Positions 1,055-58,869 of a DNA stretch of 64,000 nt are shown one piece after another. The position numbers were made by a program, and so were the translations under genes. Source of the stretch: a bacterium. GTDB lineage: Bacteria; Patescibacteriota; Minisyncoccia; Phycocordibacterales; Phycocordibacteraceae. The notes below the pieces were generated by a model. It ran no database searches. It had not been told where the DNA came from and was given only the letters and a program-made list of their open reading frames with translations. The first letter of the stretch is position 1, and each line of letters starts with the position of its first letter. The stretch covers positions 65,266 to 129,265 of the forward strand of contig JAHFML010000002.1 of NCBI GenBank assembly GCA_023269085.1, given 5' to 3'.

Positions 1055-1651
1055 ATGGCACTCGTCATTGTTGGGCTCGGGAATCCGGGGAAAGAGTACG
1101 AGAAGACGCGGCACAACGCGGGGCGAAGCGTCGTCGAGCTCGTCGCGAAGGCAGAAGCATTTGATGATTTCGTTTTTAATAAAATGAGCAATGCGCTCGT
1201 CGCGAAGGGCGCGGTCGCGGGGGAGAAGGCGACGCTCGTTTTGCCAGAGACGATGATGAATTTGTCGGGCAAGGCGGTGCTGGCGTTCGTGAAGACGCCG
1301 AAGGCCGCAGAGAAGCTGCTCGTCGTCCACGACGACCTCGATTTGCCGCTCGGCACGATCAAGATGGTTTTCGGGCGCGGGAGCGGCGGGCACAAGGGCG
1401 TCGAGAGCATTATGCGCGCGGTGAAGACCAAAGAGTTTGCACGCCTGCGTGTCGGCGTCGCACCAGCGGGGAAGAAGAATCAAGCGAAAAAATTAAAGGA
1501 TGAAGAAAAAGTCATCAAGTTCGTGATAGGGAAGTGGAAGCCCGCTGAAGAAGCCGAGGTGAAAAAAGTTTTGAAAAAAGCGGCCGAAGCCGTGCGCCTC
1601 TTCGCCGCCGACGGCATCGAGGCGGCGATGCTGTTTGCGAATACGAGGTAA
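1055..1651 (+). CDS. pth: Peptidyl-tRNA hydrolase with Lys-rich C-terminal tail
   Basis: MALVIVGLGNPGKEYEKTRHNAG matches the Pth N-terminal signature; start moved to internal ATG 1055 (ORF track starts at 992). Confidence 0.85.
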   Translation: MALVIVGLGNPGKEYEKTRHNAGRSVVELVAKAEAFDDFVFNKMSNALVAKGAVAGEKATLVLPETMMNLSGKAVLAFVKTPKAAEKLLVVHDDLDLPLGTIKMVFGRGSGGHKGVESIMRAVKTKEFARLRVGVAPAGKKNQAKKLKDEEKVIKFVIGKWKPAEEAEVKKVLKKAAEAVRLFAADGIEAAMLFANTR

Positions 1652-1674
1652 GTATCGAAGTCTGACTTCGATAC
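1652..1674. repeat. REP family D palindrome GTATCGAAGTCTGACTTCGATAC (copy 1)
   Basis: 23-nt palindrome immediately 3' of RAYT gene 1681..2391; near-identical copies at 2412-2434 and 3054-3076. Confidence 0.8.
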
Positions 1675-1680
1675 TTCGTG

Positions 1681-2391
1681 TCACCAAGGTTCGAGGGCTA
1701 CAGATGTTAATGACTCGTCATCGGCGTGATATTCGAGATGGCTGGCAAGCAGATCGCGCGCCTCATCCTTGAATGTTTGTACGTCTGGATAAAGCGCACG
1801 TAAGGGCTCGTGTTCGATAATCGGCGATTCTACAATCGAGAGAAACGCGGGGAGGCTGGAGAATTCATACGTGGTCGCCCAATTCCACGCATCATCAAAT
1901 TGTTCGGACGACCGCTTTAATCCGCCCGGGTATAATTCAAGCACGTTCTTGACCTGAATATAGAACGCGAGGTATCTAAGATGCGCATCTTCGGATACGG
2001 TACGACTTCGGTACGCGCCTTGGAACAGACTCCCACGCTCATCATATTTCGCGTTGAAGTGCGCAGTCATGCTTCCGAACACACGCTGCAGAAATTTCGT
2101 CGTTCCGTCTTCACGTATTTCTTCGATAAGGAGATGCACATGGTTGGGCATGAGTGTCCAAGCAAGAATATGAACAAGCGGTTCAGGTTCCGGCCACCAT
2201 TCCGGCCGGAAGAAATCATCGTGTCCCTCGACACTTTTCTTCCAGTTATCGTCATGAAAAGTGTCGTTCATGTAGAACAACAACTTTTGGAAGCGGCGTT
2301 GATCGGAGGCATCACGCGTGATATCCATACCGCGCACCCCACGCTTGGTCACATGCATAATCGAACCGATCCCATACGGCTCTACTCTCAT
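1681..2391 (-). CDS. IS200/IS605-family Y1 (HuH) transposase, REP-associated tyrosine transposase (RAYT)-like
   Basis: LMPNHVHLLIEE (HuH motif), GSLFQGAYRSR, LRYLAFYI tyrosine helix; flanked on both sides by REP-D palindromes. Confidence 0.75.
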   Translation of the reverse strand: MRVEPYGIGSIMHVTKRGVRGMDITRDASDQRRFQKLLFYMNDTFHDDNWKKSVEGHDDFFRPEWWPEPEPLVHILAWTLMPNHVHLLIEEIREDGTTKFLQRVFGSMTAHFNAKYDERGSLFQGAYRSRTVSEDAHLRYLAFYIQVKNVLELYPGGLKRSSEQFDDAWNWATTYEFSSLPAFLSIVESPIIEHEPLRALYPDVQTFKDEARDLLASHLEYHADDESLTSVALEPW

Positions 2392-2407
2392 ACAGTCAAT
2401 TGTAGCA

Positions 2408-2438
2408 CGTAGTATCGAAGTCAGACTTCGATACTACG
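2408..2438. repeat. REP family D palindrome (copy 2, extended 31-nt palindrome cgtaGTATCGAAGTCAGACTTCGATACtacg)
   Basis: Seen directly; lies between the RAYT start and the 3' end of hydrolase gene 2421..3023. Confidence 0.8.
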
Positions 2439-3023
2439 GATATCGGCGATAAGCTCGGGAAAGGTCTCTTGGTTGAAGTGTTGGCGATCTTCGAATACGC
2501 GAGCGGTCGCGTTCGGCAGGGCGGCTTGATATTTTTGTAGTTCAGAAAATGGCACGACAGGATCATCTTTGCTGTGGTAGAGGAATACATGTCCGCTTTG
2601 TTGTTCGAAGAGTGCGAGCGAAGAAGGGGCAGCGAATTCACTCGTCATGTCTTCCATATCAGTCGAGTACGCGCCGGCGACGATGAAGGTCGCTCTGATG
2701 CGTTTCGATACCTGTTCCTCCGAGAGATAGCGAACAAGGAAGCTGGCGCCGAGCGAATGACCGACGAGAATAAGATTGTCGTCGAGAAGCGGGAGAATCT
2801 TCTTGAAGAGGAGCGCCCATTCGGCATACTGCGCGTCTGAAGCATTCGGCATACGCGGAGCGAGCACATCGTATTCTGTGCCAAGCGTTTCTTGGAGTCG
2901 AGCCTTCCAGTCTGAGTGGAATCGATAACGATCAAGATCAATCTTTCGATTCTGTAAATCAGAGAGATATGCTTCGTGGGTCAGGAATGTGTTTCCGCCA
3001 TGAATGACTACGATTTGTTGCAT
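2421..3023 (-). CDS. Alpha/beta-hydrolase fold serine hydrolase (RBBP9/YdeN-like)
   Basis: GHSLG nucleophile elbow; 200 aa; MQQIVVIHGG N-terminus typical of this small esterase family. Confidence 0.65.
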   Translation of the reverse strand: MQQIVVIHGGNTFLTHEAYLSDLQNRKIDLDRYRFHSDWKARLQETLGTEYDVLAPRMPNASDAQYAEWALLFKKILPLLDDNLILVGHSLGASFLVRYLSEEQVSKRIRATFIVAGAYSTDMEDMTSEFAAPSSLALFEQQSGHVFLYHSKDDPVVPFSELQKYQAALPNATARVFEDRQHFNQETFPELIADIRSIEV

Positions 3024-3053
3024 GAGGTGAGTATAGCAGATTATTTCTTACAA

Positions 3054-3076
3054 GTATCGAAGTCAGACTTCGTTAC
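3054..3076. repeat. REP family D palindrome (copy 3, one mismatch)
   Basis: GTATCGAAGTCAGACTTCGTTAC between the hydrolase start and rpsA stop. Confidence 0.75.
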
Positions 3077-4197
3077 TTCTTCTTCCCCGCGAAGGTGAGC
3101 GTCATGCGCTGATCCTTCGGCTCGAAGAGCGTGATGGTGAAGGGATACGTCCGGCCGAGCTCAAGCGTCTCGCGGAGCTCGACAGGCGAGGCGAATTCGC
3201 TCACGTGCACGAGACCTGCGACGCCCTCTTCTATCGAGGCGAGCGCGCCGTGCTTGTTGTACTTGATCACGACGCCCGGCACCTCCTTGCCCTTGCTGTA
3301 GCGGGCGGCGGCAGTGTGCCACGGATTCTCCTTGAGTGCTTTGACCGAGAGCGAGACCTTGCCCTCCTTGATCTCGATAATCTTTACGCGCAACTTGTCG
3401 CCAACCTTGACGAGCGCATGCGGATCTTCGACGAGACCCCAGTCGAGCTCGCTGATGTGTACGAGGCCTTCGAGCCCGGGCTCGAGCTTCACGAAGACGC
3501 CGAAGTCGACGATACCCGTCACCTCACCGGTCGCTGCATCGCCGATCTGATACTTGTCGATGAGCGACGCCTTTTCGCCCGTGTCGTCGCCCATACGCTC
3601 GGAGAAGATGAGCTTACTCTCCTTTGCGTCGGCAGTGATGATGCGCACCGAGAGCGGATGGCCGATGAGTTGCATGAGCTCGCCCAAAATCTTGTCCTTA
3701 TCGCCCTCGGGCACGCGCGGGTAATGTTCGCTCGCGAGCTGGGAGGCAGGGAGGAAGCCCTGTATGCCTTGCCAAGAGAGGATGAGGCCGCCCTTGTTGG
3801 CCTCTTCGACCATGAGCGAATACGGCGTCTGCGCGACGATAGCCTGCTCGGCCTCGCCCCAGAGTGCCGCTTGGCGCGCCTCCTTGAGCGAGAGCTCGAT
3901 ATAGCCGTCGCGACCCGCGGGGTCGACGACTTTCGCGCTTATCGTGTCGCCCGGGTTCGCCTTGCGGAGCACATCGGCGGCGTTCAGATATTCGCGGCCA
4001 TAGATGAGCCCAGAGCCAAAGGGTGGCAGGTCGACATACACGCGCCCGCGGCTGATAGCGATGATAGTACCCTCGACGAGATCGCCCTCCTTGGGCGGCA
4101 TCGGGATGGCGTCGAGCAGGTCGGCCATAGGGTGACCTTCTGCCAAGTGGATAGTGACGACTGGAGCCGCAACCTTCTTTTCCTTCTCTTCTGACAT
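3073..4197 (-). CDS. rpsA: 30S ribosomal protein S1 (short, 4 S1 domains)
   Basis: Repeated S1 domain signatures (GxV..I...GxFV.L..g..GLxHISE); 374 aa. Confidence 0.85.
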   Translation of the reverse strand: MSEEKEKKVAAPVVTIHLAEGHPMADLLDAIPMPPKEGDLVEGTIIAISRGRVYVDLPPFGSGLIYGREYLNAADVLRKANPGDTISAKVVDPAGRDGYIELSLKEARQAALWGEAEQAIVAQTPYSLMVEEANKGGLILSWQGIQGFLPASQLASEHYPRVPEGDKDKILGELMQLIGHPLSVRIITADAKESKLIFSERMGDDTGEKASLIDKYQIGDAATGEVTGIVDFGVFVKLEPGLEGLVHISELDWGLVEDPHALVKVGDKLRVKIIEIKEGKVSLSVKALKENPWHTAAARYSKGKEVPGVVIKYNKHGALASIEEGVAGLVHVSEFASPVELRETLELGRTYPFTITLFEPKDQRMTLTFAGKKK

Positions 4198-8052: not shown

Positions 8053-8058
8053 TTTTGT

Positions 8059-8075
8059 CCAAGGTTCGACCTTGG
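8059..8075. repeat. REP family A palindrome CCAAGGTTCGACCTTGG (with conserved 5' flank TTTTGTCCAAGG)
   Basis: Seen directly, just after the gyrA stop. Confidence 0.85.
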
Positions 8076-8088
8076 AGTCGGGCGCATT

Positions 8089-8409: not shown

Positions 8410-8472
8410 TGTTGGTTTGACACCCGTTTTTATTCTGCGCGCACCTCTGGTGCGCGCGGTTTTCGTTTTTGT

Positions 8473-8489
8473 CCAAGGTTCGACCTTGG
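8473..8489. repeat. REP family A palindrome (same 24-nt TTTTGTCCAAGGTTCGACCTTGGA as copy at 8054)
   Basis: Seen directly, adjacent to RAYT gene end at 8491. Confidence 0.85.
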
Positions 8490-8490
8490 A

Positions 8491-9150
8491 TTAATCAGGG
8501 GCGTAGGTAAGCCACTCGGTGACGAGCTCTTTAAACTCCATGCCAGAATCGAAATATCCAGGCAAGGCATTGGCGGTGAGGATGATATTCTCGGCACGCG
8601 TCTCGCCGAGATAATCGCGATAGCTTGATGGCGCGTATTGCGCGAGATATCGTTCTGCGGCCGCGCGGTCTCTGATCCCCGTCTCTTTCCATTTCTGTTC
8701 GATAATCTTCACTGGGTTGAGATGAATATACGAAACGAGATAGCGCAAATAACGGTCATCCGCGACATGAGTTGCCTTGAACTTCCCTTGGAAGAGGGAG
8801 CCGTTCCGGTCGTTCTTCTTATTGAAATACATCGTATAACCGGTAGTGAGCTTCTGCATGAACTTGCTGATGCCGCCTTCTTGAAGCTCGCGCACGAGGA
8901 GATGGAAATGGTTTGGCATAAGGCAGTACGCAGCAATCTCGACGAGCGGTTCTCCTTCTCGTTTTCCCACCAACTCGTCCAAGGTTCGACCTTGGAGTTT
9001 TAGAACGACAGGAGTGCTTTGGTTCGCAAAATAGAGAAGAGCAAGGAAGCGACGGTAGTCACTTTTGTCTAAGAAGACTTTCCGTTTCTCGGTGCCGCGA
9101 TTGTAAATGTGGTAGTACTCTTCTGGCGCGAATGCGAATGTTCGTTGCAT
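8491..9150 (-). CDS. IS200/IS605-family Y1 transposase, RAYT-like (second paralog), carrying an in-frame REP-A copy
   Basis: YCLMPNHFHLLVRE HuH motif, GSLFQGKFKAT, LRYLVSYI; REP-A at 8979-8995 lies inside the ORF and encodes ...KLQGRTLDEL... Confidence 0.8.
   Translation of the reverse strand: MQRTFAFAPEEYYHIYNRGTEKRKVFLDKSDYRRFLALLYFANQSTPVVLKLQGRTLDELVGKREGEPLVEIAAYCLMPNHFHLLVRELQEGGISKFMQKLTTGYTMYFNKKNDRNGSLFQGKFKATHVADDRYLRYLVSYIHLNPVKIIEQKWKETGIRDRAAAERYLAQYAPSSYRDYLGETRAENIILTANALPGYFDSGMEFKELVTEWLTYAPD
8979..8995. repeat. REP family A palindrome inside RAYT coding sequence
   Basis: CCAAGGTTCGACCTTGG within ORF 8491..9150, frame preserved. Confidence 0.8.
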
Positions 9151-9174
9151 AACACTCGAAGTGTAGCATTATTT

Positions 9175-9191
9175 CCAAGGTCGAACCTTGG
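9175..9191. repeat. REP family A palindrome (opposite orientation, CCAAGGTCGAACCTTGG)
   Basis: Seen directly just upstream of the RAYT start. Confidence 0.85.
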
Positions 9192-9253
9192 AAAACTTGC
9201 GAGAGGTGTTGATTGCGCGCGACCGAAGGTCGCGCGCATGGTATTTTATACCC

Positions 9254-9791: not shown

Positions 9792-11099
9792 ATGAAAATC
9801 TCTCTCTTCCAAGGCATCTTGCTCGCGGTCTTCAGCTTCGCGGCGCTTATCGGTATCTTCGTCTTCGCGACGCACACGAGCAATTCTTCAAACACTTCTA
9901 CGGCTGTCGGCACTGTTGTCATCTGGGGCACGCTCCCGAAGGCAGGTCTGCAACAGGCGCTCACGATGCTCGCGCAGACAGACACCACGCTCAGCGGGAT
10001 CTCGTATGTGCAGAAGGATCAAAACGAATTCGCGACGGACCTTGCCGGGGCGATAGCGACTGGCGCCGCACCAGACTTAGTGCTCGCTTCGCAAGAAGAG
10101 TTGCAGTCGCTCACGAAACTTCTCACGCCGATACCTTCAGCGACGCTCTCGGCGGCAACCTTCACCTCGGCATTCATCGGCGAGAGCCGGCTCCTCCAGG
10201 TGCCCGACGGGTCAGGCTACTGGGGCCTCCCGTTCTTGGTTGATCCGCTCGTCCTCTTCTCGAACAGCTCAATCCTCGCGAGCAATGGCATCGCCGCACC
10301 TCCTGCGACATGGGAATCTCTCACGGGGCTCGTGCCAGTCGTAGCGAATCTCACGCCAACCAAGCAGATTACACGCGGTCTCATCGCGCTCGGCACCTAT
10401 GACAATGTCCGCGACGCGCGCGGCATCCTCTCGTCGCTCTTTATGCAAGTCGGTGTGCCGATCTCTACCTATCGCAATGGTGTCTTGGGAGTCGACTTGA
10501 GCGGGAGCCATTCGTCTGGCGTTGGCGCCGGACAGGCCGCGCTCGACTTCTATGCACAATTCGCCGATCCGTCGAAGCTCTCCTACACCTGGAACGCCTC
10601 GTTGCCCGATTCCCAGAAAGCATTTATCGCCGGCAATCTCGCGCTGTATCTCGGCTACGCTTCTGAAGCGCGTTTCCTGCGCGCCGCGAACCCGAACCTC
10701 GACTTCCGCGTGACTGCTCTGCCACAGCCCGCCACTGCCGCCGACAAGAGCACCTACGGGCTCCTCTACGCGCTCATGATCCCGCGCGGCGCGAAGAATG
10801 CATCGGGCGCCTTCGCCGCCGCGTCGCTCTTCACCAATAACGCCGGGCAAGCCGCCTTCGCGAATGCTACCGGCCTCGCGCCCGTCACGATCTCCAGACT
10901 CGCGACGACACCCGACGACCCTGTCGCGGCAGTCGCTGCCGCTGAGGCGTTGTACGCGAAGGGTTGGTTGTCCCCAGCGCCCGCCGATACGGACGCCATC
11001 TTTTCGAGTATGATTACCAGCGTGATCAGCGGCCGTCTCAACACTCTGACCGCGCTTACCACCGGGGCGAGCGCCCTCTCTATCCTCTTACAAAAATAA
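9792..11099 (+). CDS. Membrane-anchored extracellular solute-binding-protein-like protein (SBP family 1-like fold suspected)
   Basis: N-terminal TM ISLFQGILLAVFSFAALIGIFVF followed by ~400 aa Ala/Ser/Thr-rich periplasmic-like domain with MalE-like spacing; start moved to ATG 9792 (ORF track 9693 overlaps MTase). Confidence 0.45.
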   Translation: MKISLFQGILLAVFSFAALIGIFVFATHTSNSSNTSTAVGTVVIWGTLPKAGLQQALTMLAQTDTTLSGISYVQKDQNEFATDLAGAIATGAAPDLVLASQEELQSLTKLLTPIPSATLSAATFTSAFIGESRLLQVPDGSGYWGLPFLVDPLVLFSNSSILASNGIAAPPATWESLTGLVPVVANLTPTKQITRGLIALGTYDNVRDARGILSSLFMQVGVPISTYRNGVLGVDLSGSHSSGVGAGQAALDFYAQFADPSKLSYTWNASLPDSQKAFIAGNLALYLGYASEARFLRAANPNLDFRVTALPQPATAADKSTYGLLYALMIPRGAKNASGAFAAASLFTNNAGQAAFANATGLAPVTISRLATTPDDPVAAVAAAEALYAKGWLSPAPADTDAIFSSMITSVISGRLNTLTALTTGASALSILLQK

Positions 11100-16058: not shown

Positions 16059-16418
16059 TCAGTCTGGAAGCGCGACACCTGTCGCGCGGGCGAGTGTCGC
16101 TATCTGTCGGTCGTGCCGGACTAAGTGCGCGCTACCCGCGCCGTTCTCCGTCCACAAGTCATGCATCCCGCCGACAATGCCGTCGAGCTTATTTTCCATC
16201 CGGCCGATGACCATCGCCATCGCGCCTATTTCTTCATGCACTTCGCCTAGCTCGACCTTTACATCGGCAATCGCTTCTTTGAGATCAACTTTTGTAGCGT
16301 ACTTCTTAAATTCCCTTTTTATGTAATCTTTTGTAGGGTACTTCTTCAATTCGTTCCTCAAGTCATCCTTCGTCGCAAAGGTGTCTTTGAGCTTTTCGAT
16401 ATCCGCATTGGTAATCAT
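16059..16418 (-). CDS. Hypothetical small protein with tandem KKYPTKDYIKREFKKYATKVDLKE-type repeats
   Basis: ORF plus ~39-bp DNA tandem repeat at ~16288-16353; no recognizable domain. Confidence 0.3.
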   Translation of the reverse strand: MITNADIEKLKDTFATKDDLRNELKKYPTKDYIKREFKKYATKVDLKEAIADVKVELGEVHEEIGAMAMVIGRMENKLDGIVGGMHDLWTENGAGSAHLVRHDRQIATLARATGVALPD

Positions 16419-16659: not shown

Positions 16660-16971
16660 CTATTCAGGCGCGCCGGTGTGCTCGCGGTTGTCGAGAAGGA
16701 AGTTGATGCGCGGAAGCGGGTGAAGCCGCGCGTGCGCCTTCAGGTGGTCAGAGAACGCTTCGCGCTGACGGTTGAGGAATGAGAGCGCCGAGTGCGCCAT
16801 CTCTTCGGGGAAGATGCTGACGAAGACGCGCACCTGTGCGCCGTGCTCTGCCGCCTCGGCGCGGACGACGGTAATGAGCGAGCCTGGGCCTGCCTCGCGC
16901 GCGATGAATTGCGCCGCCTCTTGAGCGATGACGCCGAGCACGCGGCCGGTACGTTCGCGCTTCGTTATCAT
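16660..16971 (-). CDS. rbfA: Ribosome-binding factor A
   Basis: 103 aa, RbfA-like KH fold sequence (RV..I..E....I...); immediately downstream of infB with 4-nt overlap, the conserved infB-rbfA arrangement. Confidence 0.75.
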   Translation of the reverse strand: MITKRERTGRVLGVIAQEAAQFIAREAGPGSLITVVRAEAAEHGAQVRVFVSIFPEEMAHSALSFLNRQREAFSDHLKAHARLHPLPRINFLLDNREHTGAPE

Positions 16972-30779: not shown

Positions 30780-33206
30780 TTATTTCAAATATTCAGCCGC
30801 TTCAGCGGGAGTGAACGAAGTGGGCGAGACAGACTCGGGGAGATAGATGCGACGGAGACCTTTCTTCAAAAAGAGACCCTGCTTTGATTTGTAGAGCACG
30901 ATAGTCTTGCCGGTCTTGGGGTGCTTACCGATCTCTTGTACGATCTCGACGCCGCGCGGCGGCTGCTTCGGCGCGGCAAGGAGCGCGAGCGCCGTGTCGA
31001 GCGTGACCGTGTAGGGGTCGCCGATCGCGGGCTTGAGCGAGCGGAATTCGCCATCGCTCCCGACGTAGGGGCCGAAGCGGCCGGTCGAAGCGAAAACGGT
31101 TTTGCCGGTGCTTGGGTGCATCCCGAGCTCGCGCGGGAGCGAGAGATAGTGGAGCGCGTCGGCGAGGGTCACCTGCGAGAGGTCGGTGCCGGCGGGGATG
31201 CTCGCGCGCTTGGCGGCAACCTTCGGGCGACCCTTTGCGCGCTTCTTCGGTTTCTTCGATTCAAGGTTCGACCTTGAATCCGAATCCTTAAGGTCGGACC
31301 TTGGTTCGGGTTCGGGCAACGCCATCTCGACATATGGCCCGAAGCGACCCGTCTTGATATAAATAGGCGCGCCAGTCGTCGGGTCATTGCCAATGGGCTC
31401 GTCACCTTTGAGCTCGACGCCCTCTTCGGTGCGCGCACCGAGACAGTCGGGATACTTCTTACAGCTCATGAAGATGCCGCCGCGACCGAGCTTCAGCTCC
31501 ATCGGGCTCCCGCAGAGAGGGCAAGTGAATTCGGGCGACACTTCGCCGAGCGAGGTCGCCTTCGGGAGCTTATCTTTTTCCTTCACCTGTCTCTCAAAGG
31601 GGCCGTAAAATTCGGAGAGCGTCTCCTTGTAGCCGCGCTCGCCGCGCGCGATCTCGTCGAGCTCGTCCTCCATCGTTGCGGTGAAGGAGTCGCTGATGTA
31701 GGTCGCGAAGTTTTCTTCGAGCCAGCCCGAGACGACCATACCGGTCGCCGTCGGCTTCAAGGTGCGGCCGGTCTTCTCGACGTATTCGCGGTCCGAGAGC
31801 GTCTTCATCGTTGAGGCATAGGTCGAGGGGCGGCCGATGCCGCGCTTCTCGAGCTCCTTGATGAGGCCGGCCTCGGTGTAGCGGTTCGGCGGTTCGGTCT
31901 GCTTCTCCTCCTCGCCGAGCGAGAGGAGCGTGAGCGGGTCGCCCTTCGCCACGCGGGGTAATTCGACATCCTCACCCTTCGCTTTCGTGTCGAGTGCGAG
32001 CCAGCCCGGGAAGAGTGTCCGCGAGCCGGTCGCCGCGAAGAGCGGAATGTCGGCATCGGCCTTCGCCGAAATATTCGTTCGCATGATTTTCGCGCTTGCC
32101 ATCTGCGAGGCGAGCGTGCGAACACGGATGAGCTCGTAGAGCGCGTGTTCGTCGGGCGTCGCGCCGGCATGTCCGCATGCGGCATCGGTGGGGCGGATTG
32201 CTTCGTGCGCCTCCTGCGCGTTCTTGCTCGTCGTCTTGTAGGCGCGCGTCTGGGCATACTCTTTACCGAATTCTTGCTCGATGACCGTTATCATTTTCGC
32301 GACGGCTTCGGCACCGAGATTGACCGAGTCGGTGCGCATGTAGGTGATGTGGCCGGCTTCATAGAGCTTCTGTGCGGCCCGCATCGCGCGCGAGGGCGCG
32401 AAGCCGAGACGCGTCGACGCGACCTGTTGGAGCGTCGAGGTGGTGAAGGGCGGACGCGGGGATCGCTCCTCCGCCTTTTCTATAATGTCAGCGACCTGCC
32501 AAGCGGCGGCGCGACCGAGCCTCACGATGCGCCCTGCTTCTTCGCGCGTCGCGGGCTCCTCGACGCAGGTAGTCATCAAGGTCGAACCTTGAACTTCAAG
32601 GTTCGACCTTGATGACGAGAAGGAGGCACGGAGGACGAAATAGGTGACGGGCACGAACGCTTTGATCTCGCGCTCGCGTTCGGCGAGGATCCGGAGCGCG
32701 GGCGATTGCACGCGGCCGGCCGAGAGCCCGTAACGAACTTTCTTCCAGATGAGTCCCGAGAGATCATAGCCGACGATGCGGTCGAGCACGCGCCGCGCCT
32801 CTTGCGCCTGCCGCAAATCTTCGTCGATAGTGCGCGGGTGGGCAAGCGCCTCTTCGATAGCGGCCTTGGTAATCTCGTGGAAGGCGACGCGCTTGGGCTT
32901 CTTCAGCTTCGCCACCTCCTTGATATGCCAGGCGATAGCTTCGCCCTCGCGGTCGGGGTCGGTCGCGAGATACACCTCGTCGGCCTTGGCGGCTGCGGCC
33001 CGTATCTTCTCGATGATCTCCTGCTTCTCGGGCGGGATGATGTAGTGCGGCACGAAGCCGCCCTCGATATCGACCGCATCGATATTGCTCTTGGGCAAAT
33101 CGCGCACATGCCCGACCGAGGCCAAGACCGTGTAGCCTTTCCCGAGGTAGGTGCCGATAGTGCGCGCCTTGGTGGGCGACTCAACGATGAGAAGACGGTT
33201 CGTCAT
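30780..33206 (-). CDS. topA: DNA topoisomerase I, carrying two in-frame REP-A doublet insertions
   Basis: Toprim N-terminus MTNRLLIVESPTKARTI, catalytic domain, C-terminal zinc ribbons (CPLCGSPM...); insertions encode ...SSSRSNLEVQGSTLMTT... and ...RSDLKDSDSRSNLES... Confidence 0.9.
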   Translation of the reverse strand: MTNRLLIVESPTKARTIGTYLGKGYTVLASVGHVRDLPKSNIDAVDIEGGFVPHYIIPPEKQEIIEKIRAAAAKADEVYLATDPDREGEAIAWHIKEVAKLKKPKRVAFHEITKAAIEEALAHPRTIDEDLRQAQEARRVLDRIVGYDLSGLIWKKVRYGLSAGRVQSPALRILAEREREIKAFVPVTYFVLRASFSSSRSNLEVQGSTLMTTCVEEPATREEAGRIVRLGRAAAWQVADIIEKAEERSPRPPFTTSTLQQVASTRLGFAPSRAMRAAQKLYEAGHITYMRTDSVNLGAEAVAKMITVIEQEFGKEYAQTRAYKTTSKNAQEAHEAIRPTDAACGHAGATPDEHALYELIRVRTLASQMASAKIMRTNISAKADADIPLFAATGSRTLFPGWLALDTKAKGEDVELPRVAKGDPLTLLSLGEEEKQTEPPNRYTEAGLIKELEKRGIGRPSTYASTMKTLSDREYVEKTGRTLKPTATGMVVSGWLEENFATYISDSFTATMEDELDEIARGERGYKETLSEFYGPFERQVKEKDKLPKATSLGEVSPEFTCPLCGSPMELKLGRGGIFMSCKKYPDCLGARTEEGVELKGDEPIGNDPTTGAPIYIKTGRFGPYVEMALPEPEPRSDLKDSDSRSNLESKKPKKRAKGRPKVAAKRASIPAGTDLSQVTLADALHYLSLPRELGMHPSTGKTVFASTGRFGPYVGSDGEFRSLKPAIGDPYTVTLDTALALLAAPKQPPRGVEIVQEIGKHPKTGKTIVLYKSKQGLFLKKGLRRIYLPESVSPTSFTPAEAAEYLK
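31258..31304. repeat. REP family A doublet inside topA (GATTCAAGGTTCGACCTTGAATC ... AAGGTCGGACCTTGG)
   Basis: Two inverted REP units ~10 bp apart; reading frame of topA preserved. Confidence 0.85.
32574..32614. repeat. REP family A doublet inside topA: 41-nt perfect palindrome CATCAAGGTCGAACCTTGAAcTTCAAGGTTCGACCTTGATG
   Basis: Seen directly; frame preserved. Confidence 0.9.
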
Positions 33207-37148: not shown

Positions 37149-37160
37149 TAGGGTGAACGC

Positions 37161-38186
37161 ATGTCATTCTGGCAGAAACTCCCGAAACCTTTTTTCGTCA
37201 TGGCGCCGATGGCAGATGTCACCGATGCCGCCTTCCGCGCGCTTATCGCGAGCCGCGCTGCGCCCGACGTTTTCTGGACCGAGTTCGTCTCGGCCGACGG
37301 GCTCTATCACACCCGCGAGATCGCACGGATGCCGGACAATGAGAACCCACTCATGCGCGACCTTTTGAAGAGCAGTGCGGAGCGGCCGATAGTCGCGCAG
37401 ATATTTTCAAACAAGCCGGAGATGATCGCGTATGCGACGCGCGTGGTTGCTGACCTTGGCTTCGACGGCGTCGATCTCAACATGGGCTGCCCTGATAGAG
37501 CGATAGAGCGGCAGGGGAGCGGTGCCGCGATGCTGAAGTCGCCGGAGGTAGCCCGCGCGGTAATCCGCGCGGCGAAGGGTGCGAGTAGCTTGCCCGTCAC
37601 GGTCAAGACGCGTGTCGGGTATAATCGCGAATCGCTCGATGAGTGGCTGCCCGTCTTGCTCGAAGAAGCGCCGGCCGCTATCACGCTGCACCTGCGCACA
37701 CGCAAAGAGTTGTCGCTCGTACCCGCGCAGTGGGAGCTCATGAAGAGGGCGGTCGCTCTTCGCGATAGCCTCAATCCTGACGTACTCCTTATCGGTAACG
37801 GCGATGTGACGAGTGTTGAGCAGGGTAAGCGGCTTGTCGATGAGACCGGTTGCGATGGCGTCATGATCGGCCGCGGCATGTTCGGCAATCCGTGGGTCTT
37901 TGAGGGATTGACGCGCACACCAAGGTCGGACCTTCGGTCCGAATTCTCAAGGTCCGACCTTGGTGTGCGCGAACATGGGCTCTCCGAAAAGCTCGAAGCT
38001 TTAGTTGAGCTCGCGCATAACTTCGAGAAGCTCTTGCCGCCCAAAAATTTCTCCATACTCAAGAAGCACATCAAAGCCTTTGCCACGGGCTTCGACGGCG
38101 CTGCCGATCTCCGCGCGCGCCTTATGCTCGCCGACTCTGCTACTGAGCTCGAAGGGATTGTTGCAGAATACGTAGATGGAGCGTAA
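37161..38186 (+). CDS. tRNA-dihydrouridine synthase (DusB-like) with an in-frame REP-A doublet insertion
   Basis: FFVMAPMADVTDAAFR, LNMGCP, TIM-barrel FMN motifs; insertion encodes ...LTRTPRSDLRSEFSRSDLGVRE... Confidence 0.85.
   Translation: MSFWQKLPKPFFVMAPMADVTDAAFRALIASRAAPDVFWTEFVSADGLYHTREIARMPDNENPLMRDLLKSSAERPIVAQIFSNKPEMIAYATRVVADLGFDGVDLNMGCPDRAIERQGSGAAMLKSPEVARAVIRAAKGASSLPVTVKTRVGYNRESLDEWLPVLLEEAPAAITLHLRTRKELSLVPAQWELMKRAVALRDSLNPDVLLIGNGDVTSVEQGKRLVDETGCDGVMIGRGMFGNPWVFEGLTRTPRSDLRSEFSRSDLGVREHGLSEKLEALVELAHNFEKLLPPKNFSILKKHIKAFATGFDGAADLRARLMLADSATELEGIVAEYVDGA
37918..37965. repeat. REP family A doublet inside dus gene: 48-nt hairpin CACCAAGGTCGGACCTT-cggtccgaattctc-AAGGTCCGACCTTGGTG
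   Basis: Seen directly; loop contains GAATTC as in the uvrB copy. Confidence 0.9.
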
Positions 38187-39576: not shown

Positions 39577-40271
39577 ACGGCGACTCATTCCGTATCGCGC
39601 TCGCGGGAGTCGCGCTCGTCGTCGCGGCGGGCGGCGTGTATCTCAAATATGAAGACATGAAGCCCTGCGTGCATCCGCTGCCCTACGCTATCGGGGCGGT
39701 CGATGCGCGCTTTGACACGACCGCGGCGACAGTCGAGCGAGAAGCCCTCGCTGCCGCGACAATCTGGAACACGGCAGAGGGGAAGCCACTCCTCGCCTAT
39801 GACACTCACGCCGCGCTCAAGATCAATCTCATCTACGACGAACGCGAGGCGAGCGCCAAGCAGGGAGAAGACATCGCGCGCGCTCAAGCCGCGCTCGAGA
39901 GCGAGCGAGCGATGATAGAGGCAGAGCGCACAGCAGGCAATGTGTCCCCGAACACCTTCAACGCGCAGGTCGCGAGCTATAACGCGAGCATCGCCTCGCT
40001 GAACGCGCGCGTGAGCGACTACAACAAGAGCGCCGGTCACGACTTCAAAGAAGGCGAGTATATCCAAGACGCGTCGGGCAAGCGCATCAACGTCTACGAA
40101 TTCATCGGCACCAATCAGCTCGAACGCGTCCTCGCGCACGAGCTCGGTCACGCCCTCGGCCTCGATCACAACAGCGACCCCGCCTCGATCATGTACGCCG
40201 AGAACGAGAGCGGCAACCTCGTCCCCACTACTGCCGACCTCGCCGCGCTCCGCGCCCTCTGCGGGTCGTAA
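39573..40271 (+). CDS. Membrane-anchored zinc metalloprotease, matrixin (M10)-like
   Basis: HELGHALGLDHNSDPASIMY = HExxHxxGxxH + Met-turn; N-terminal TM; ATGA overlap with dnaX. Confidence 0.7.
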   Translation: MNGDSFRIALAGVALVVAAGGVYLKYEDMKPCVHPLPYAIGAVDARFDTTAATVEREALAAATIWNTAEGKPLLAYDTHAALKINLIYDEREASAKQGEDIARAQAALESERAMIEAERTAGNVSPNTFNAQVASYNASIASLNARVSDYNKSAGHDFKEGEYIQDASGKRINVYEFIGTNQLERVLAHELGHALGLDHNSDPASIMYAENESGNLVPTTADLAALRALCGS

Positions 40272-40339
40272 TCTGGAGATATCAACATACGAACAAATAG
40301 ATGTAGGCTATAGATTTCATGTCGTGCTAGTATAGTTTT

Positions 40340-41041
40340 GTGTTAGCTTTACCGAAAGAAAAAGCGCGTGCCGTACAGCTTCGCAAACAAGGTAAAACCT
40401 ATGGAGAAATTGCAAAGCAAATTCTGGTTTCTAAATCAACGCTTTCTCTTTGGTTGCGAGATGTTGAAGTGTCAGCAGAGTTTCTCTCTCGTATCCGACA
40501 AAAGAAATTAGATGCGGTCAAGAAGGGTTGGGAGGCGCGCAGGAAGGAGCGTATCGATCGAACGAAGCAGATTACTGATGCGGCACGAGAAGAAGTCTCG
40601 AAATTTTATAAACAGCCACTCTGGCTCGTTGGCGTAACTCTTTACTGGGCTGAAGGACATAAAGAAAAATCTTGGCGTCCGGGGGCACTCGTGACTTTCA
40701 CCAACATGGACGAAAATACGATAATTATCTTCAGAAATTGGTGTCGTAAATATATGGATGTCTCGGACGGTGATTTTGTTTACAGCCTCTATGTTCATGC
40801 TACTCACGAAATGCGGACGTTAGAAATAAAACAATGGTGGGCACGCAAACTCTCAATAAACCCTGATAGCATCGCCGTTTATTACAAGAAACATACAACA
40901 AAACACGTGCGTCATAATGACGACGATAACTATCATGGGGTTTGTCGTGTTCGTGTGAGGAAGAGTGTGGATATGAATCGGAGAATTGCTAGTTGGACAT
41001 CCGAAATGGTACGTTCACTGGAGGACAAAAATAAGCTATGA
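40340..41041 (+). CDS. Hypothetical HTH-domain protein (low-GC islet; possible homing-endonuclease-like)
   Basis: N-terminal HTH (TYGEIAKQILVSKSTLSLWLRD); ...LWLVGVTLYWAEGHK... faintly LAGLIDADG-like; clearly lower GC. Confidence 0.4.
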   Translation: MLALPKEKARAVQLRKQGKTYGEIAKQILVSKSTLSLWLRDVEVSAEFLSRIRQKKLDAVKKGWEARRKERIDRTKQITDAAREEVSKFYKQPLWLVGVTLYWAEGHKEKSWRPGALVTFTNMDENTIIIFRNWCRKYMDVSDGDFVYSLYVHATHEMRTLEIKQWWARKLSINPDSIAVYYKKHTTKHVRHNDDDNYHGVCRVRVRKSVDMNRRIASWTSEMVRSLEDKNKL

Positions 41042-41063
41042 TAGAGCCACTCGTGCTCACCGC

Positions 41064-41134
41064 TGGGGGATCGTCTAATGGTAGGACGACGGGTTTTGGT
41101 CCCGTTAATTTAGGTCCGAGTCCTAATCCCCCAG
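41064..41134 (+). tRNA. tRNA-Gln-like (anticodon TTG), atypical
   Basis: Manual fold: acceptor TGGGGGA/TCCCCCA with G73 (U1:A72/G73 as in E. coli tRNA-Gln), 3-bp D-stem, anticodon loop UUUUGGU, T-arm TTAGG-TCCGAGT-CCTAA; an alternative 8-9 bp acceptor register exists. Confidence 0.55.
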
Positions 41135-41260
41135 CAGTGTGCAGGAGACTCTAGGATCGTTCCCTAGCTCCCCAGCAAAGTCGTGCGAGGTTATCTCGCA
41201 CAAGACGCGTCAAATGGATGAGTTACTCAGAATATTGATATATGAGTTAGAATAAGCCCA

Positions 41261-42229
41261 ATGGAACAATTTTCTCATGCGCAAAAAGAATCTGGAATAA
41301 ACCGAGTTGTCGGATTCGATGCAGGACAGGAGAAAAAATTCTTACAGTATTTCAAAGATAAGTTTGAAACCAGATCTCCTGATTCAGGAGATAAAGAAAA
41401 AACATCCGAACAAGTGGCGCTGATTGACCGCACCAATAAGGAGATGCGAGATTTCTTGGCACGGTACAATATCAATGCCGTTGAGATCCCGGCGGATAAT
41501 GTTCATATACTCGATCGGTCGAAACTTACGCAAGAAGAACTTCGAGAGATTCAAAAAAGATTTGGCACTGAGAGTGGATTCTACTCAGCCTTTAAGCAAG
41601 GCGTCGCGATTATGAAAGATTACGATGTAAGCAAATTGTCGTTTCTGCAAACTCTTGTCCACGAGTCGCTCCATCTTCAGGGATTTTATTCGTATCAAAA
41701 GAGTTCTCGAGAGACTGCCGATTTTAGCGTGAAAAACGAAGATAACTCGGCAAGTTTGAACATCCGACGATCAGGATTCTCTATCGGCACAAAAGATGGT
41801 AAAAGACGGCTCTTCCATGAGATTAATGAATCTATTATCACGGAGCTACAAATTCGATTCGAGAACGCATACCTCGCGCAGTGGCCAGAGCTGAAAGAAG
41901 AATTAAAAGCTCGCGATGCCTGTATCGAACGAGTCGCAAAACGAGACAACGCACCAATAGAAGAAATACGGAAGGTTGTAGCGAGTTTCTCTGGATACGC
42001 ATGGGTAACCTATCCCTATAACGACGAGCGCCAGGAGTTTAATTCTCTGGTCGATGAGTTGTATACGAGAAACCAATCAGATTTTGAATCGCGAGAAGAT
42101 GTCTTTAATTTATTTGTTGAAGCAACAATGAATGGTCGTCTTCTCCCTGTCGCACGACTCATTGAGAAGACATTCGGTAAGGGAACATTTAGGACAATTG
42201 GTGTGAACAGTGCGAATAAGCACGACTAG
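41261..42229 (+). CDS. Hypothetical protein (low-GC islet; contains HESLH motif)
   Basis: ORF 322 aa; LVHESLHLQG could be an HExxH zinc site but no further support. Confidence 0.4.
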   Translation: MEQFSHAQKESGINRVVGFDAGQEKKFLQYFKDKFETRSPDSGDKEKTSEQVALIDRTNKEMRDFLARYNINAVEIPADNVHILDRSKLTQEELREIQKRFGTESGFYSAFKQGVAIMKDYDVSKLSFLQTLVHESLHLQGFYSYQKSSRETADFSVKNEDNSASLNIRRSGFSIGTKDGKRRLFHEINESIITELQIRFENAYLAQWPELKEELKARDACIERVAKRDNAPIEEIRKVVASFSGYAWVTYPYNDERQEFNSLVDELYTRNQSDFESREDVFNLFVEATMNGRLLPVARLIEKTFGKGTFRTIGVNSANKHD

Positions 42230-51302: not shown

Positions 51303-52166
51303 ATGAAAGAACTAACTCGTTCAACGCTCGTCACCATCGTCGCCTCATCGCTCTCCCTCCTCGCCTTCTACGCGATCAACGCTTCTGCACAATCAGCCTG
51401 GACTCCAGCTCCAGCTAACGCTCCCTCAGGCAACGTGGCAGGCCCCCTCACCACGGGCGCAACCGGTCAGAGCAAAGCCGGCAACCTTATGCTCAACACC
51501 GACGGCACCCTCGCCAACGGCCTCATCGTCGCGAATGGGAATGTGGGGATTGGGACAATAACTCCCACAGCAAAGGTGCATATCGATGCGAGTGCTGCCA
51601 ATACCACTGCATTGGAACTCGATACCTACGGAAGCAGCTCGTCCTCCGCGAACAGCATCCTGTTTAAAAATACGAACCAACCCGGTTTCTCGTGGCAAAT
51701 GGAGAATGCCTGGGATGGATCCTTCCGTATCGGAAGATCGGGAGATTCAGCTGCGGGTACATACCCGTTTTTTGTCCAGAAAAACGGAAACATCGCTGTC
51801 GGGGCAGCCAGTGCGAATAATTCCAAAGGAACCGGTGGCTACCTTGACGCCAAAGACGTCTACCTCCGTGACGCCGGGAAGTGGGCGAGTCAGCTTGGGG
51901 GTACTGGGAGTGCCAAAATACTACTGAAAAGTGAGTATATCGCTATATTTAGCGGGCATAGTACAGAACAGACACCGAATGGTTTTAAGCTCTGGATTGA
52001 CGCTAGCGGTAATGTGTTTATGCGGAACCCGAGTAAGGGTAATGTCATAAATCTGGGGGGACTTGGTACTTTTCAGGATCTTTCAAAGCCCTATATGCTG
52101 AGTAGTGTATATGTCAATATATATGGAGCAGGTTGGGGTGGCGAATATGCTGCTTGGGTCAACTGA
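51303..52166 (+). CDS. Hypothetical secreted beta-rich protein (tail-fibre/adhesin-like Gly/Asn-rich)
   Basis: Signal peptide ...AINASA/QSA; NGNVGIGTITPTAKVHI-type motif common in fibre-like proteins; 3' part lower GC. Confidence 0.45.
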   Translation: MKELTRSTLVTIVASSLSLLAFYAINASAQSAWTPAPANAPSGNVAGPLTTGATGQSKAGNLMLNTDGTLANGLIVANGNVGIGTITPTAKVHIDASAANTTALELDTYGSSSSSANSILFKNTNQPGFSWQMENAWDGSFRIGRSGDSAAGTYPFFVQKNGNIAVGAASANNSKGTGGYLDAKDVYLRDAGKWASQLGGTGSAKILLKSEYIAIFSGHSTEQTPNGFKLWIDASGNVFMRNPSKGNVINLGGLGTFQDLSKPYMLSSVYVNIYGAGWGGEYAAWVN

Positions 52167-52236
52167 TTTTTCAGCTCTACCTGGTTTGCACAACGCAGAT
52201 GACTTCTGCAGAAGTGCATCATGCTACAATGCGCGT

Positions 52237-52569
52237 ATGAAAGAGGTGAAAAAATCAACAGGAAACGAACCGACCATCACTGATGTGATGGCATCTTTAC
52301 AAGATCTAACGGAAGCAGTGCAGTCTGGCTTTGCAAAGCATGAAGCAAGGTTTGATCGTCACGAAAAGATTCTTGCGGCTTTGCACGAAGGGCAAAATAA
52401 TCTCACCGAGCGCGTCGGGGACATGGATCGACGACTCATCGCTACGCAGAGTCGCGTTGAAGATATCGCGGATATGTTCGAGAGCACGACCGATGTCGTC
52501 GATGAGAGCCGCGACCAGATTTTCGATCACGAGATTCGCCTCAAGCGGCTTGAGGAAGTAGCTGTGTAG
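52237..52569 (+). CDS. Hypothetical coiled-coil protein
   Basis: 110 aa, heptad-like Glu/Arg/Leu pattern; start moved to ATG 52237. Confidence 0.4.
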   Translation: MKEVKKSTGNEPTITDVMASLQDLTEAVQSGFAKHEARFDRHEKILAALHEGQNNLTERVGDMDRRLIATQSRVEDIADMFESTTDVVDESRDQIFDHEIRLKRLEEVAV

Positions 52570-52571
52570 CT

Positions 52572-55328: not shown

Positions 55329-55331
55329 AAT

Positions 55332-57209: not shown

Positions 57210-57214
57210 ATGCT

Positions 57215-57529
57215 ATGATAAACCCTATGCAAGACGAAATAACCGCGCGCATTGCCGCCGATCTCGGCATTAGCTCGCTCCCGATAGAAGATCAGAAGTC
57301 GCTTATCACGCAGTTCGGCGAGGTGGCGCTCAAGTCAGCGACCATTGCCGTCGCCGAGAAGCTTGGGGAGGAGAAGCGCGACGAGTTCATCAAGCTTGCC
57401 GAGGCGGGCGACGCCGCCGCGCTCAAGACCTTCCTCGATGCTGAGGTGCCCGAGCATGAGGAGCTCGTCAAGGCGGCTATCGCCGACGAGATTAAGCGCT
57501 TCAAAGATTTTCAATCTGCTAACGCCTAA
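57215..57529 (+). CDS. Hypothetical small acidic helical protein
   Basis: 104 aa, Ala/Glu/Lys-rich. Confidence 0.4.
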   Translation: MINPMQDEITARIAADLGISSLPIEDQKSLITQFGEVALKSATIAVAEKLGEEKRDEFIKLAEAGDAAALKTFLDAEVPEHEELVKAAIADEIKRFKDFQSANA

Positions 57530-57554
57530 CGCCTAATTCCTAACCACCTAGCTT

Positions 57555-58070
57555 ATGAATCCGATCCAGACTGGTATCGCTACCGCCCTCGCGCTCGTCG
57601 TTGTCGCCGTTTTCTTCTTCTTCCCGAGCTTGCTCCCCTTTGGCCAATCGGCACCGACAGAGCCAGCACAGGTGAGCGTCGCCGCTACCACTAATCAACA
57701 ACTAGCTTCAACCACTATGCCAACAGAAAATGTTACCGATCTCCAGATAACCGACGAGACCATCGGCACTGGCGCCGTCGCCGCCGCGGGCGACACCGTT
57801 ACGGTCAACTATGTCGGTGCGCTCACGAACGGTACCGTCTTTGACGCTTCGGCGAATCACGGCTCGACCGGCTTCACCTTCCCGCTTGGGGCAGGGCAGG
57901 TTATCAAGGGTTGGGACATGGGCGTCGCAGGGATGAAGGAGGGTGGCAAGCGCAAGCTCGTCATCCCGGCCTCGCTTGCCTATGGCGACCGCGCGGTAGG
58001 GAATGTCATCCCGGCAAGTGCGACGCTCATCTTCGAGGTCGAGCTCGTGAAGGTGCAGAAAGGGAAGTAA
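57555..58070 (+). CDS. FKBP-type peptidyl-prolyl cis-trans isomerase (membrane-anchored/secreted)
   Basis: GDTVTVNYVGALTNGTVFDAS...FTFPLGAGQVIKGWDMGVAGMKEGGKRKLVIPASLAYG FKBP signature. Confidence 0.9.
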   Translation: MNPIQTGIATALALVVVAVFFFFPSLLPFGQSAPTEPAQVSVAATTNQQLASTTMPTENVTDLQITDETIGTGAVAAAGDTVTVNYVGALTNGTVFDASANHGSTGFTFPLGAGQVIKGWDMGVAGMKEGGKRKLVIPASLAYGDRAVGNVIPASATLIFEVELVKVQKGK

Positions 58071-58119
58071 CCAAGGTTCGACCTTAAGAAATTTGGGCCA
58101 AAGGTCGAACCTTGGTTAC
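58067..58119. repeat. REP family A doublet forming a 19-bp-stem hairpin GTAACCAAGGTTCGACCTT-loop-AAGGTCGAACCTTGGTTAC
   Basis: Starts inside the FKBP stop codon; a second GC hairpin terminator follows. Confidence 0.9.
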
Positions 58120-58132
58120 GGGATGAAAAGTT

Positions 58133-58164
58133 AATGGGCGCGAACCTTGCGGTTCGCGCCCATT
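58133..58164. terminator. Terminator hairpin AATGGGCGCGAACC-ttgc-GGTTCGCGCCCATT between convergent genes
   Basis: Seen directly between FKBP (+) and lipoprotein gene (-). Confidence 0.6.
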
Positions 58165-58170
58165 TGTCGA

Positions 58171-58846: not shown

Positions 58847-58869
58847 CGGCTCATAGTGATACGAAAGCC

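Follow-up and report, generated by a model that had tools for sequence, protein, structure and literature searches.

The pairing of REP-associated tyrosine transposases (RAYTs) with repetitive extragenic palindromes (REPs) is the best-studied case of a domesticated transposase that maintains non-autonomous repeats, and nearly all that has been characterised of it comes from large-genome Proteobacteria. In the literature RAYT genes are single-copy and vertically inherited (PMC5581495), several may occupy one genome, each with a REP family of its own (PMC6006769 section 12; PMC5581495), REP copies may lie within the RAYT genes themselves (PMC6006769 section 12), and large genomes are reported to be richer in TnpA-Y1 genes that lie outside insertion sequences (ISs) (PMC6006769 section 10). 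Here we describe RAYT_D, a RAYT gene flanked by palindromes of a family designated REP-D, in a 64-kb stretch of contig JAHFML010000002.1 (assembly GCA_023269085.1; the whole stretch is referred to as the window), whose host is a Paceibacteria/Parcubacteria-type Patescibacterium with an ultra-small genome, Kaiserbacteria-like within the Paceibacterota/Minisyncoccota to judge by the names of homologues. No paper was found in the literature searched that ties RAYTs, REP doublets forming hairpins (REPINs) or extragenic palindromes to the Patescibacteria or the Candidate Phyla Radiation (CPR), which is absence of evidence only. With a probability of roughly 0.8, we interpret the locus as a REPtron, in which a single-copy, vertically inherited RAYT_D, a predicted Y1/HUH endonuclease/ligase of single-stranded DNA (ssDNA), is flanked by cognate copies of REP-D.

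RAYT_D and its flanking palindromes

The locus lies in the slot between rpsA (the S1 gene) and pth/signal peptidase and comprises the following features.

1681..2391, minus strand: RAYT_D, 236 amino acids (aa), Y1/HUH tyrosine transposase-like; Pfam Y1_Tnp; RAYT-type C-terminal extension, ending in LEPW
1651..1675, no strand: REP-D copy 1, AGTATCGAAGTCTGACTTCGATACT; 12-bp arms, 1-nt centre; between the convergent 3' ends of pth (plus) and RAYT_D (minus)
2411..2435, no strand: REP-D copy 2, AGTATCGAAGTCAGACTTCGATACT; 20 nt upstream of the RAYT_D start
3053..3077, no strand: REP-D copy 3, AGTATCGAAGTCAGACTTCGTTACT, 1 mismatch; between the hydrolase start and the 3' end of S1
2421..3023, minus strand: alpha/beta (serine) hydrolase, 200 aa; Pfam Ser_hydrolase 47.5 bits, also alpha/beta-hydrolase families; G+C content (GC) 50.6%

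RAYT_D matched Pfam PF01797 Y1_Tnp with 30.9 bits (cut-off 23, E 3.4e-7). Its HUH motif reads N83-H84-V85-H86-L87 and its predicted catalytic tyrosine is Y144 (YIQVKN); H84, H86 and Y144 were invariant in an alignment of 107 homologous sequences. A search of 5.8 billion proteins returned 444 relatives at E <= 1e-5. Among the 120 matches listed, lengths were nearly always 229-255 aa, PF01797 was precomputed for nearly all homologues, and one protein was named 'REP element-mobilizing transposase RayT' by its source. Because phmmer and profile searches of PDB sequences gave ISDra2 TnpA only (E ~0.5), homology to E. coli RayT was visible only by hhalign and by fold search. In the hhalign comparison (E 0.0018) the two HUH motifs are aligned with each other, as are the RAYT-type C-terminal 'FSS' regions, and Y144 falls opposite the catalytic Y115. 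An AlphaFold2 (AF2) model built from the 107 sequences (predicted local distance difference test 89.1, predicted template-modelling score 0.87) placed 4ER8_A, the E. coli RAYT-REP complex, first in a Foldseek search of the PDB, with an E of 1.6e-5 and the longest alignment; ISDra2 and IS608 TnpA came next, and the top 25 PDB hits were all Y1 transposases. The model has the HUH (ferredoxin-like beta-alpha) fold. The original prediction, which had called this open reading frame (ORF) a RAYT, is thus borne out by the Pfam family, the HUH motif and tyrosine, the alignment to E. coli RayT and the fold match to 4ER8.

It had also placed a palindrome on either side of the gene and a third beyond the neighbouring hydrolase, an arrangement confirmed by reading the sequence and by pattern search. 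The full REP-D unit is 25 nt long, AGTATCGAAGTC-W-GACTTCGATACT (W, A or T), and occurs at 1651-1675, 2411-2435 and 3053-3077; the 23-nt matches are GTATCGAAGTCTGACTTCGATAC (1652-1674), GTATCGAAGTCAGACTTCGATAC (2412-2434) and GTATCGAAGTCAGACTTCGTTAC (3054-3076, 1 mismatch). A search of the 64 kb with up to 3 mismatches returned these 3 matches and no others, against 0.00 expected in 100 dinucleotide-preserving shuffles of the window. When folded as ssDNA, copies 1, 2 and 3 gave hairpins of -10.8, -14.5 and -7.2 kcal/mol (z = -5.6, -8.1 and -4.4). No relevant family was found in an Rfam search of the palindromes.

Each copy is fitted closely to a gene end. Copy 1 opens with an A that completes the TAA stop of pth. 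Within copy 2 lie the hydrolase's TGA stop and the four codons before it (SIEV*), and the TAA stop of the S1 gene, on the minus strand, is created by the single mismatch of copy 3. Two of the three reading frames of REP-D are stop-free and the third gives TGA only if the centre base is T, which explains both its tolerance within genes and its capacity to provide stops where genes end. An inverted orientation of the two flanking copies, whose centres are T and A, was considered as a rule and dropped: orientation is barely definable in a perfect palindrome, and among 11 lineages the upstream and downstream centre bases were opposite in 6 and the same in 5.

Single REP copies often lengthen the palindrome by 3-5 copy-specific complementary bases past the family consensus, as in L056 3854-3878, L040 6667-6691, L081 210-234, L083 6238-6272 (L numbers denote the stretches compared) and copy 2 of the window, where complementarity runs over 2408-2438 with 15-nt arms. 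Partial direct repeats of one arm (e.g. ATCGAAGT) adjoin several copies, including the left flanks of those in L004, L008, L043 and L062. Both features may be a clue to how copies insert or grow.

Orthologues of RAYT_D occupy the same slot in at least five related lineages, including L076 (78% identity), L085/L086 (71%), L087 (69%) and L089-L094 (54%), where the adjoining housekeeping genes are 74-88% identical, and the rpsA-pth RAYT locus was present in 24 of the 24 contigs read for P0102. Copies in this genome were counted over ~79 kb, made up of the 64-kb window, ~8 kb to its left (L001) and ~7 kb to its right (L176, a contig fetched via its Tgt protein that is collinear with window positions 51316-63816 and then continues 7 kb past the window end); a single D-type RAYT gene was present, and the window ORFs at the locus include none resembling tnpB near RAYT_D. 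Judged from this synteny and copy number, RAYT_D behaves as a domesticated, single-copy, vertically inherited RAYT and not as an IS.

In two of these lineages the RAYT_D cassette is bracketed by direct duplications of neighbour gene ends. Beyond the far end of the cassette, L085 carries at 10752-10900 a second copy of hydrolase aa 157-198 with the 26 nt that follow downstream, and L087 carries at 9865-9951, upstream of the cassette, a diverged duplicate of pth aa 170-198. These duplicated ends look like the scar of recombination or of a Campbell-type integration, and because of them we regard the RAYT_D neighbourhood as prone to rearrangement.

REP-D also occurs away from its RAYT. A fourth, perfect copy, AAAGTATCGAAGTCTGACTTCGATACTTT, lies at L176 16093-16121, ~65 kb from RAYT_D in the same genome, within the following gene.

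L176 15727-17046, just past the right end of the window: uvrC, with three in-frame inserts from three palindrome families

The copy is in frame and reads ...GKDM-KVSKSDFDT-LPF...; baseline UvrC homologues have no insert at this point, and the closest homologue (81% identity) has in that loop a different insert, resembling REP-A, the palindrome of a second RAYT in the window. From this lineage-specific insertion in uvrC, and from it only, we infer that REP-D was probably mobile in the past. Outside the source genome, which the GTDB representatives do not include, the exact 21-nt core TATCGAAGTCNGACTTCGATA occurred in 81 stretches belonging to 44 species-level assemblies; almost all were Patescibacteria, and the number per assembly reached 10. 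A RAYT homologue was present in 11 of the 81 stretches, with the palindrome at or inside the gene in 10 of the 11, and Chersky_89 combines a D-clade RAYT (50% identity) with 7 dispersed exact core copies. With the uvrC copy and the 44 assemblies, REP-D is a family of dispersed repeats, as originally predicted, and not a peculiarity of one locus.

The exact core was also seen up to 10 times in metagenome-assembled genomes (MAGs) labelled as something other than Patescibacteria, namely L013, L038, L039, L050, L055, L058, L074, L080 (JADHYL01 'Omnitrophota'), as well as L034, L067, L070 ('Nitrospirales'), L053 and L073 ('Elusimicrobia'). This could reflect horizontal RAYT-REP spread, or mis-binned or mislabelled Patescibacteria contigs. 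L019, with two copies 761 bp apart, was considered as a REPtron lacking its RAYT and set aside, as it is a membrane-protein gene that has been duplicated in tandem along with the hairpin downstream of it.

IS200/IS605 TnpA proteins such as those of IS608 and ISDra2 share the catalytic fold of RAYT_D, and the chemistry on single-stranded hairpin DNA is presumably the same. That RAYT_D is itself an autonomous IS of this type with the hairpins as its ends, or that the palindromes arose by purely local duplication, nevertheless strikes us as extremely improbable. Y1_Tnp is indeed the IS200 transposase family, the hairpins lie just outside both gene ends, and within the 64-kb window REP-D is confined to this locus, as such readings would have it. 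However, across lineages with identities as low as 54% the locus is single and keeps its synteny, one symmetric hairpin stands at both ends where an IS would have a distinct left and right end, tnpB is missing, and the 236-aa RAYT_D, with its RAYT-type C-terminal extension, is ~90 aa longer than the ~130-150-aa chains of IS200/IS608 TnpA. Purely local duplication is excluded by the uvrC copy 65 kb away and by the core in 44 other assemblies.

Palindrome changes along the RAYT lineage

The palindromes flanking RAYT_D and its relatives differ among lineages as follows.

Window, L076, L087 and L083: AGTATCGAAGTC-W-GACTTCGATACT
L088, six copies in 1.1 kb: TACCGAAGTC-W-GACTTCGGTA
L085: TATAGGAATC-W-GATTCCTATA
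L089: AGTAAAGAGGTT-T-AACCTCTTTACT
L018: AATATCGAAGTC-W-GACTTCGATATT

More variants are present at the metagenome loci L095-L103. Across the D-clade flanking palindromes the apex AGTC-W-GACT is kept and the lower stem differs (TATCGAAGTC, TACCGAAGTC, TATAGGAATC and AGTAAAGAGGTT), the differences being always compensatory and identical on both flanks of each RAYT. In an alignment of 34 hairpins, 94.9% of cells pair, a percentage partly built in by the choice of these hairpins as palindromes, and 11 of 12 pairs had changed on both sides; the covariation score was 0.673, as compared to 0.174 for shuffled and no more than 0.14 for slid controls. Because the hairpins of this set were picked beforehand, independent evidence comes from enrichment and from the match between flanks: at the 67 evaluable metagenomic loci of RAYT relatives a perfect-arm palindrome was present on both flanks in 34, and in 31 of those 34 the two matched each other, against 0 of 412 random window pairs from the same contigs. 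These concerted compensatory changes follow the RAYT lineage and argue that hairpin and RAYT co-evolve.

The same data bear on a cis-regulatory or structural role, in which the palindromes would act chiefly as bidirectional terminators, mRNA stabilisers or operators of a dimeric protein and would insulate the RAYT gene without being mobilised by it. All three copies stand exactly at gene ends and overlap stop codons, and copy 3 is terminator-like in a simple scan; enterobacterial REPs act as terminators or stabilisers, and perfect dyad symmetry is also selected by dimeric proteins that bind duplex DNA. Against this, copies 1 and 2 have no T-tract, no Rfam family matches, and the element lies in frame in essential genes of considerable length, in which termination would do harm (uvrC here; gatB, ligA and tsaD in relatives). 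That the hairpin sequence follows the RAYT lineage, with both flanks matching, is likewise hard to reconcile with such a role, which we consider very unlikely.

Under the REPtron interpretation, a mechanism can be proposed by analogy with E. coli TnpA-REP and IS608 TnpA. When exposed as ssDNA, for example at a replication fork, REP-D would fold into an 11-12-bp hairpin that RAYT_D may recognise, probably mainly by the conserved apex AGTC-W-GACT. RAYT_D would then cut nearby via Y144, with a metal held by H84 and H86, and rejoin the DNA; now and then this would seed REP-D at a new site, as with the in-frame uvrC copy. Binding, cleavage and mobilisation by RAYT_D, and the hairpin positions that would confer specificity, are all predicted from that analogy.

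Several observations weigh against the REPtron interpretation. RAYT_D reached only 30.7 bits against the NCBIfam equivalog NF047646 REP_Tyr_transpos, under its cut-off of 80. Of the E. coli residues that read the GT[AG]G tetranucleotide at the 5' foot of the hairpin (W94/Q95/E100/H101/R104; PMC6006769), Q95 alone is kept, as Q124 in RAYT_D, while the other four (W94, E100, H101 and R104) are replaced; REP-D has no GT[AG]G foot and instead shows AGTA/TACT, which is variable in relatives. The tally of 4 copies in ~79 kb, 3 of them at RAYT_D, is very low, and some assemblies had several REP copies yet no RAYT in the fetched stretches (of D type, E14.bin.348 and nzgw457). The choice of palindromic hairpins for the covariation set counts here as well, and full palindrome symmetry could also be selected by a dimeric duplex-DNA-binding protein or by a terminator role. 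Finally, the three other contigs with this locus showed neither presence/absence polymorphism nor any further hint of ongoing activity. The original prediction of independently active systems is therefore not upheld; the insertion in uvrC suggests past mobility only.

Comparison with described systems places the locus nearest to E. coli TnpA-REP/RayT, itself a REPtron (4ER8; class 2, PMC6006769). Both have the Y1/HUH fold and a C-terminal extension, with HUH and tyrosine aligned, and both are single-copy genes flanked by cognate hairpin repeats that are also found elsewhere in the genome; sequence similarity is marginal (hhalign E 0.0018), and unlike the E. coli system RAYT_D resides in the ultra-small genome of a Patescibacterium, an unexpected host given the enrichment of such genes reported for large genomes. 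Whereas canonical REPs number in the hundreds, copy numbers here range from single digits to about ten, and REP-D differs further in being a perfect, bulge-free palindrome with a 1-nt centre, so that both strands form the same hairpin. The REPINs of Pseudomonas and Enterobacteria with Group 2/3 RAYTs (PMC5581495, PMC3116915) offer a similar picture of a single-copy, vertically inherited, housekeeping-like RAYT with over-represented flanking repeats. In contrast to REPINs, the four REP-D copies are singlets and not inverted doublets; REP doublets do occur in relatives (L009, L039, L046 and L083) and for REP-A (32572-32616 and 37919-37964). In abundance REP-D is nearer to the low-copy Groups 1 and 4 of Bertels (12-14 occurrences; PMC5581495) than to Groups 2/3.

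The RAYT_A paralogue and the neighbouring hydrolase

A second RAYT of the window has a palindrome family of its own.

8491..9150, minus strand: RAYT_A, 219 aa; RAYT_D paralogue of another clade, 32% identity, phmmer E 9.5e-28
8058-8076, 8472-8490, 8978-8996 and 9174-9192, no strand: REP-A, TCCAAGGT[TCG/CGA]ACCTTGGA

RAYT_A scored 50.5 bits against NF047646 (cut-off 80). REP-A occurs elsewhere in the window at 4234, 31260, 32575/32595, 37919/37946 and 58098, its pattern giving 11 matches against 0.04 expected. With 32% identity between the proteins and REP-A distinct from REP-D, the prediction of a second RAYT paralog with a different REP in the same genome holds. The more general claim made with it, that one RAYT serves one REP, is supported with a qualification. 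Each RAYT has its own palindrome, and that palindrome changes with the RAYT; on the other hand, a single stem, TATCGAAGTC/GACTTCGATA, is used by both the D-clade RAYTs and an A-like clade with which they share only ~30% identity. The centre base of this shared stem differs between the two, being A/T in the D clade (34 of 34 flanking hairpins) and G/C in the A-like clade, and none of 13 multi-copy assemblies mixes the two classes of centre.

The REP-A copy at 8978-8996 lies in frame inside RAYT_A. Many RAYT genes of the family hold their own cognate palindrome in frame at a recurrent position, ~aa 52-60, N-terminal to the HUH motif: besides that of the window, palindromes were seen within RAYT genes at L032 1248, L021 5779, L102 2611, L104 1508, L124 5144, L128 5152, L143 2176, L154 1202, L158 4276 and L160 5161, while RAYT_D itself has no internal copy. 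The recurrent internal palindrome could mark a permissive loop or an autoregulatory site. It recalls RAYT subclass 2.4 with its 'double-foot' REPs (PMC6006769), a likeness drawn from the described features. There too the REP is symmetric, its two feet being complementary copies of one short sequence (here AGTA...TACT), and an in-frame REP sits inside the RAYT gene (here RAYT_A and many relatives, not RAYT_D). Unlike in subclass 2.4, however, the in-gene copy precedes HUH and is not placed between HUH and Y, and the foot is not GT[AG]G.

The methyltransferase-gyrA slot, which holds RAYT_A in the window, is empty in L087 and L089 and in L085 holds a different RAYT (2351-3046) that is 44% identical to RAYT_D and 34% identical to RAYT_A, with the palindrome TGATAGACA[YCSGR]TGTCTATCA. 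As the occupants differ among relatives, RAYTs turn over in this slot, unlike in the stable rpsA-pth slot.

The hydrolase gene next to RAYT_D is bracketed by REP-D copies 2 and 3, and the original prediction had likened it to a passenger. A composite mobile unit of the form REP-RAYT-REP-hydrolase-REP (1651-3077), with the hydrolase as cargo moved or acquired with RAYT_D, draws support from composition: GC is 50.4% in RAYT_D, 50.6% in the hydrolase and 50% in the block 1651-3077 between the outer REP-D copies, against 57-61% in the pth, S1 and gyrA flanks. The RAYT_A island is also low in GC and has a like layout, its REP-A copies bounding orf106 and RAYT_A as REP-orf106-REP-RAYT-REP. Moreover, L087 and L089-L094 have the RAYT but no hydrolase between it and rpsA, and the duplicated neighbour fragments beside the RAYT cassette (hydrolase 3' end in L085, pth 3' end in L087) would suit such a unit.

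We nonetheless judge this unit unlikely. In L085/L086 a hydrolase orthologue (61% identity; that of L085 ends in ...ADIKRLS*) sits in the same slot with a flank-like GC of 60.7%, and a GC-rich, terminator-like hairpin rather than a REP separates it from S1. Low GC is a property of the RAYT gene, since RAYT_D orthologues have a lower GC than the genes around them in all lineages, conserved synteny notwithstanding; for the same reason low GC was not accepted as proving a recent horizontal transfer. A separate stretch of ~1.8 kb in the window, at 40200-42000, is markedly poorer in GC (41-46%) than the window as a whole (mean 57.6%). Neither the exact hydrolase protein nor a REP-hydrolase-REP unit was found at a second location, and a hydrolase homologue in L008 is not adjacent to a REP. 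We know of no Y1-family transposon with cargo between three identical symmetric hairpins. The passenger role is thus not established, its sole support being compositional (50% GC); most simply, the hydrolase is a lineage-variable neighbour of RAYT_D that by chance is bordered by REP copies on both sides.

Palindromes inside coding sequence

In this genome the 'extragenic' palindromes frequently lie within genes. REP-A-like singlets, doublets and one 57-nt perfect palindrome lie in frame in Pfam-confirmed housekeeping genes of the window.

30783-33206, minus strand: TopA, with in-frame REP-A-like palindromes at 31260-31278 and 32572-32616
37152-38183, plus strand: Dus, with an in-frame REP-A-like palindrome at 37919-37964
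59907-61211, plus strand: Tgt, with an in-frame palindrome at 60979-61035

The peptides added include, for example, SSSRSNLEVQGSTLMT, TPRSDLRSEFSRSDLG and EMSDISCPTSDVGHDMSDIF. Past the window, the three inserts of UvrC consist of REP-D (16093-16121), a doublet resembling REP-A (16505/16532) and a doublet of GGACTTCGTAAGTCC type (~16667-16716), and uvrA carries palindromes at 13490/13517 and 14096 (all in L176). In a UvrC alignment the peptides that these three loops have gained from palindromes differ between lineages, and the baseline homologues have none, a pattern that suggests recurrent insertion or replacement at the same sites.

Exact copies of the core were often found within genes as well, with 40 of 89 spanned by ORFs of at least 120 aa. 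In other Patescibacteria the 21-nt core lies in frame in gatB (L009 4729-4781) and ligA (L046 3732-3790). Two species have it in one loop of tsaD in different reading frames (L060 3248-3268 and L061 3970-3990), and four have it at one identical site in a gene of the endonuclease/exonuclease/phosphatase (EEP) family (L020/L042/L065/L084).

Such frequent in-frame insertion into housekeeping genes sets these elements apart from canonical REPs and recalls the Rickettsia palindromic elements (RPEs; PMC10969869), which are likewise palindromic repeats of a reduced genome that lie in frame in unrelated essential genes and add short peptides. The likeness is one of behaviour only and not of homology: RPEs are ~150 bp long and no RAYT link is mentioned for them (PMC10969869), while the Patescibacteria elements are 21-29-nt hairpins, or doublets of these, tied to RAYT genes.

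A broader and rather speculative reading would see here a widespread, undescribed RAYT-REP lineage of the Patescibacteria, whose hairpins, short, perfectly symmetric and free of stops, would regularly settle in frame in the surface loops of essential proteins. The examples behind it are UvrC, UvrA, TopA, Tgt and Dus in this genome and GatB, LigA and TsaD in relatives. The presence of different REP families in the same loops across lineages suggests RAYT-mediated insertion or replacement of cassettes at pre-existing hairpin sites, in which case the RAYTs might be domesticated 'loop editors' and the apex and centre nucleotides their specificity code. We hold this wider proposal to be doubtful at present.

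While the kind of system is itself known, the Patescibacteria appear to be a host group for RAYT-REP that has so far gone unreported. A divergent RAYT clade is kept at one slot across tightly packed, ultra-small genomes, its hairpins do without the GTAG guide, and their stems change with the protein. The natural series of stem variants, together with the split between A/T and G/C centres in two clades, amounts to a ready-made specificity table. The in-frame insertions into essential genes present a second, independent case beside the RPE phenomenon, here with a candidate enzyme, and intragenic palindromes of this sort matter for the annotation and protein alignment of CPR/Patescibacteria genomes.

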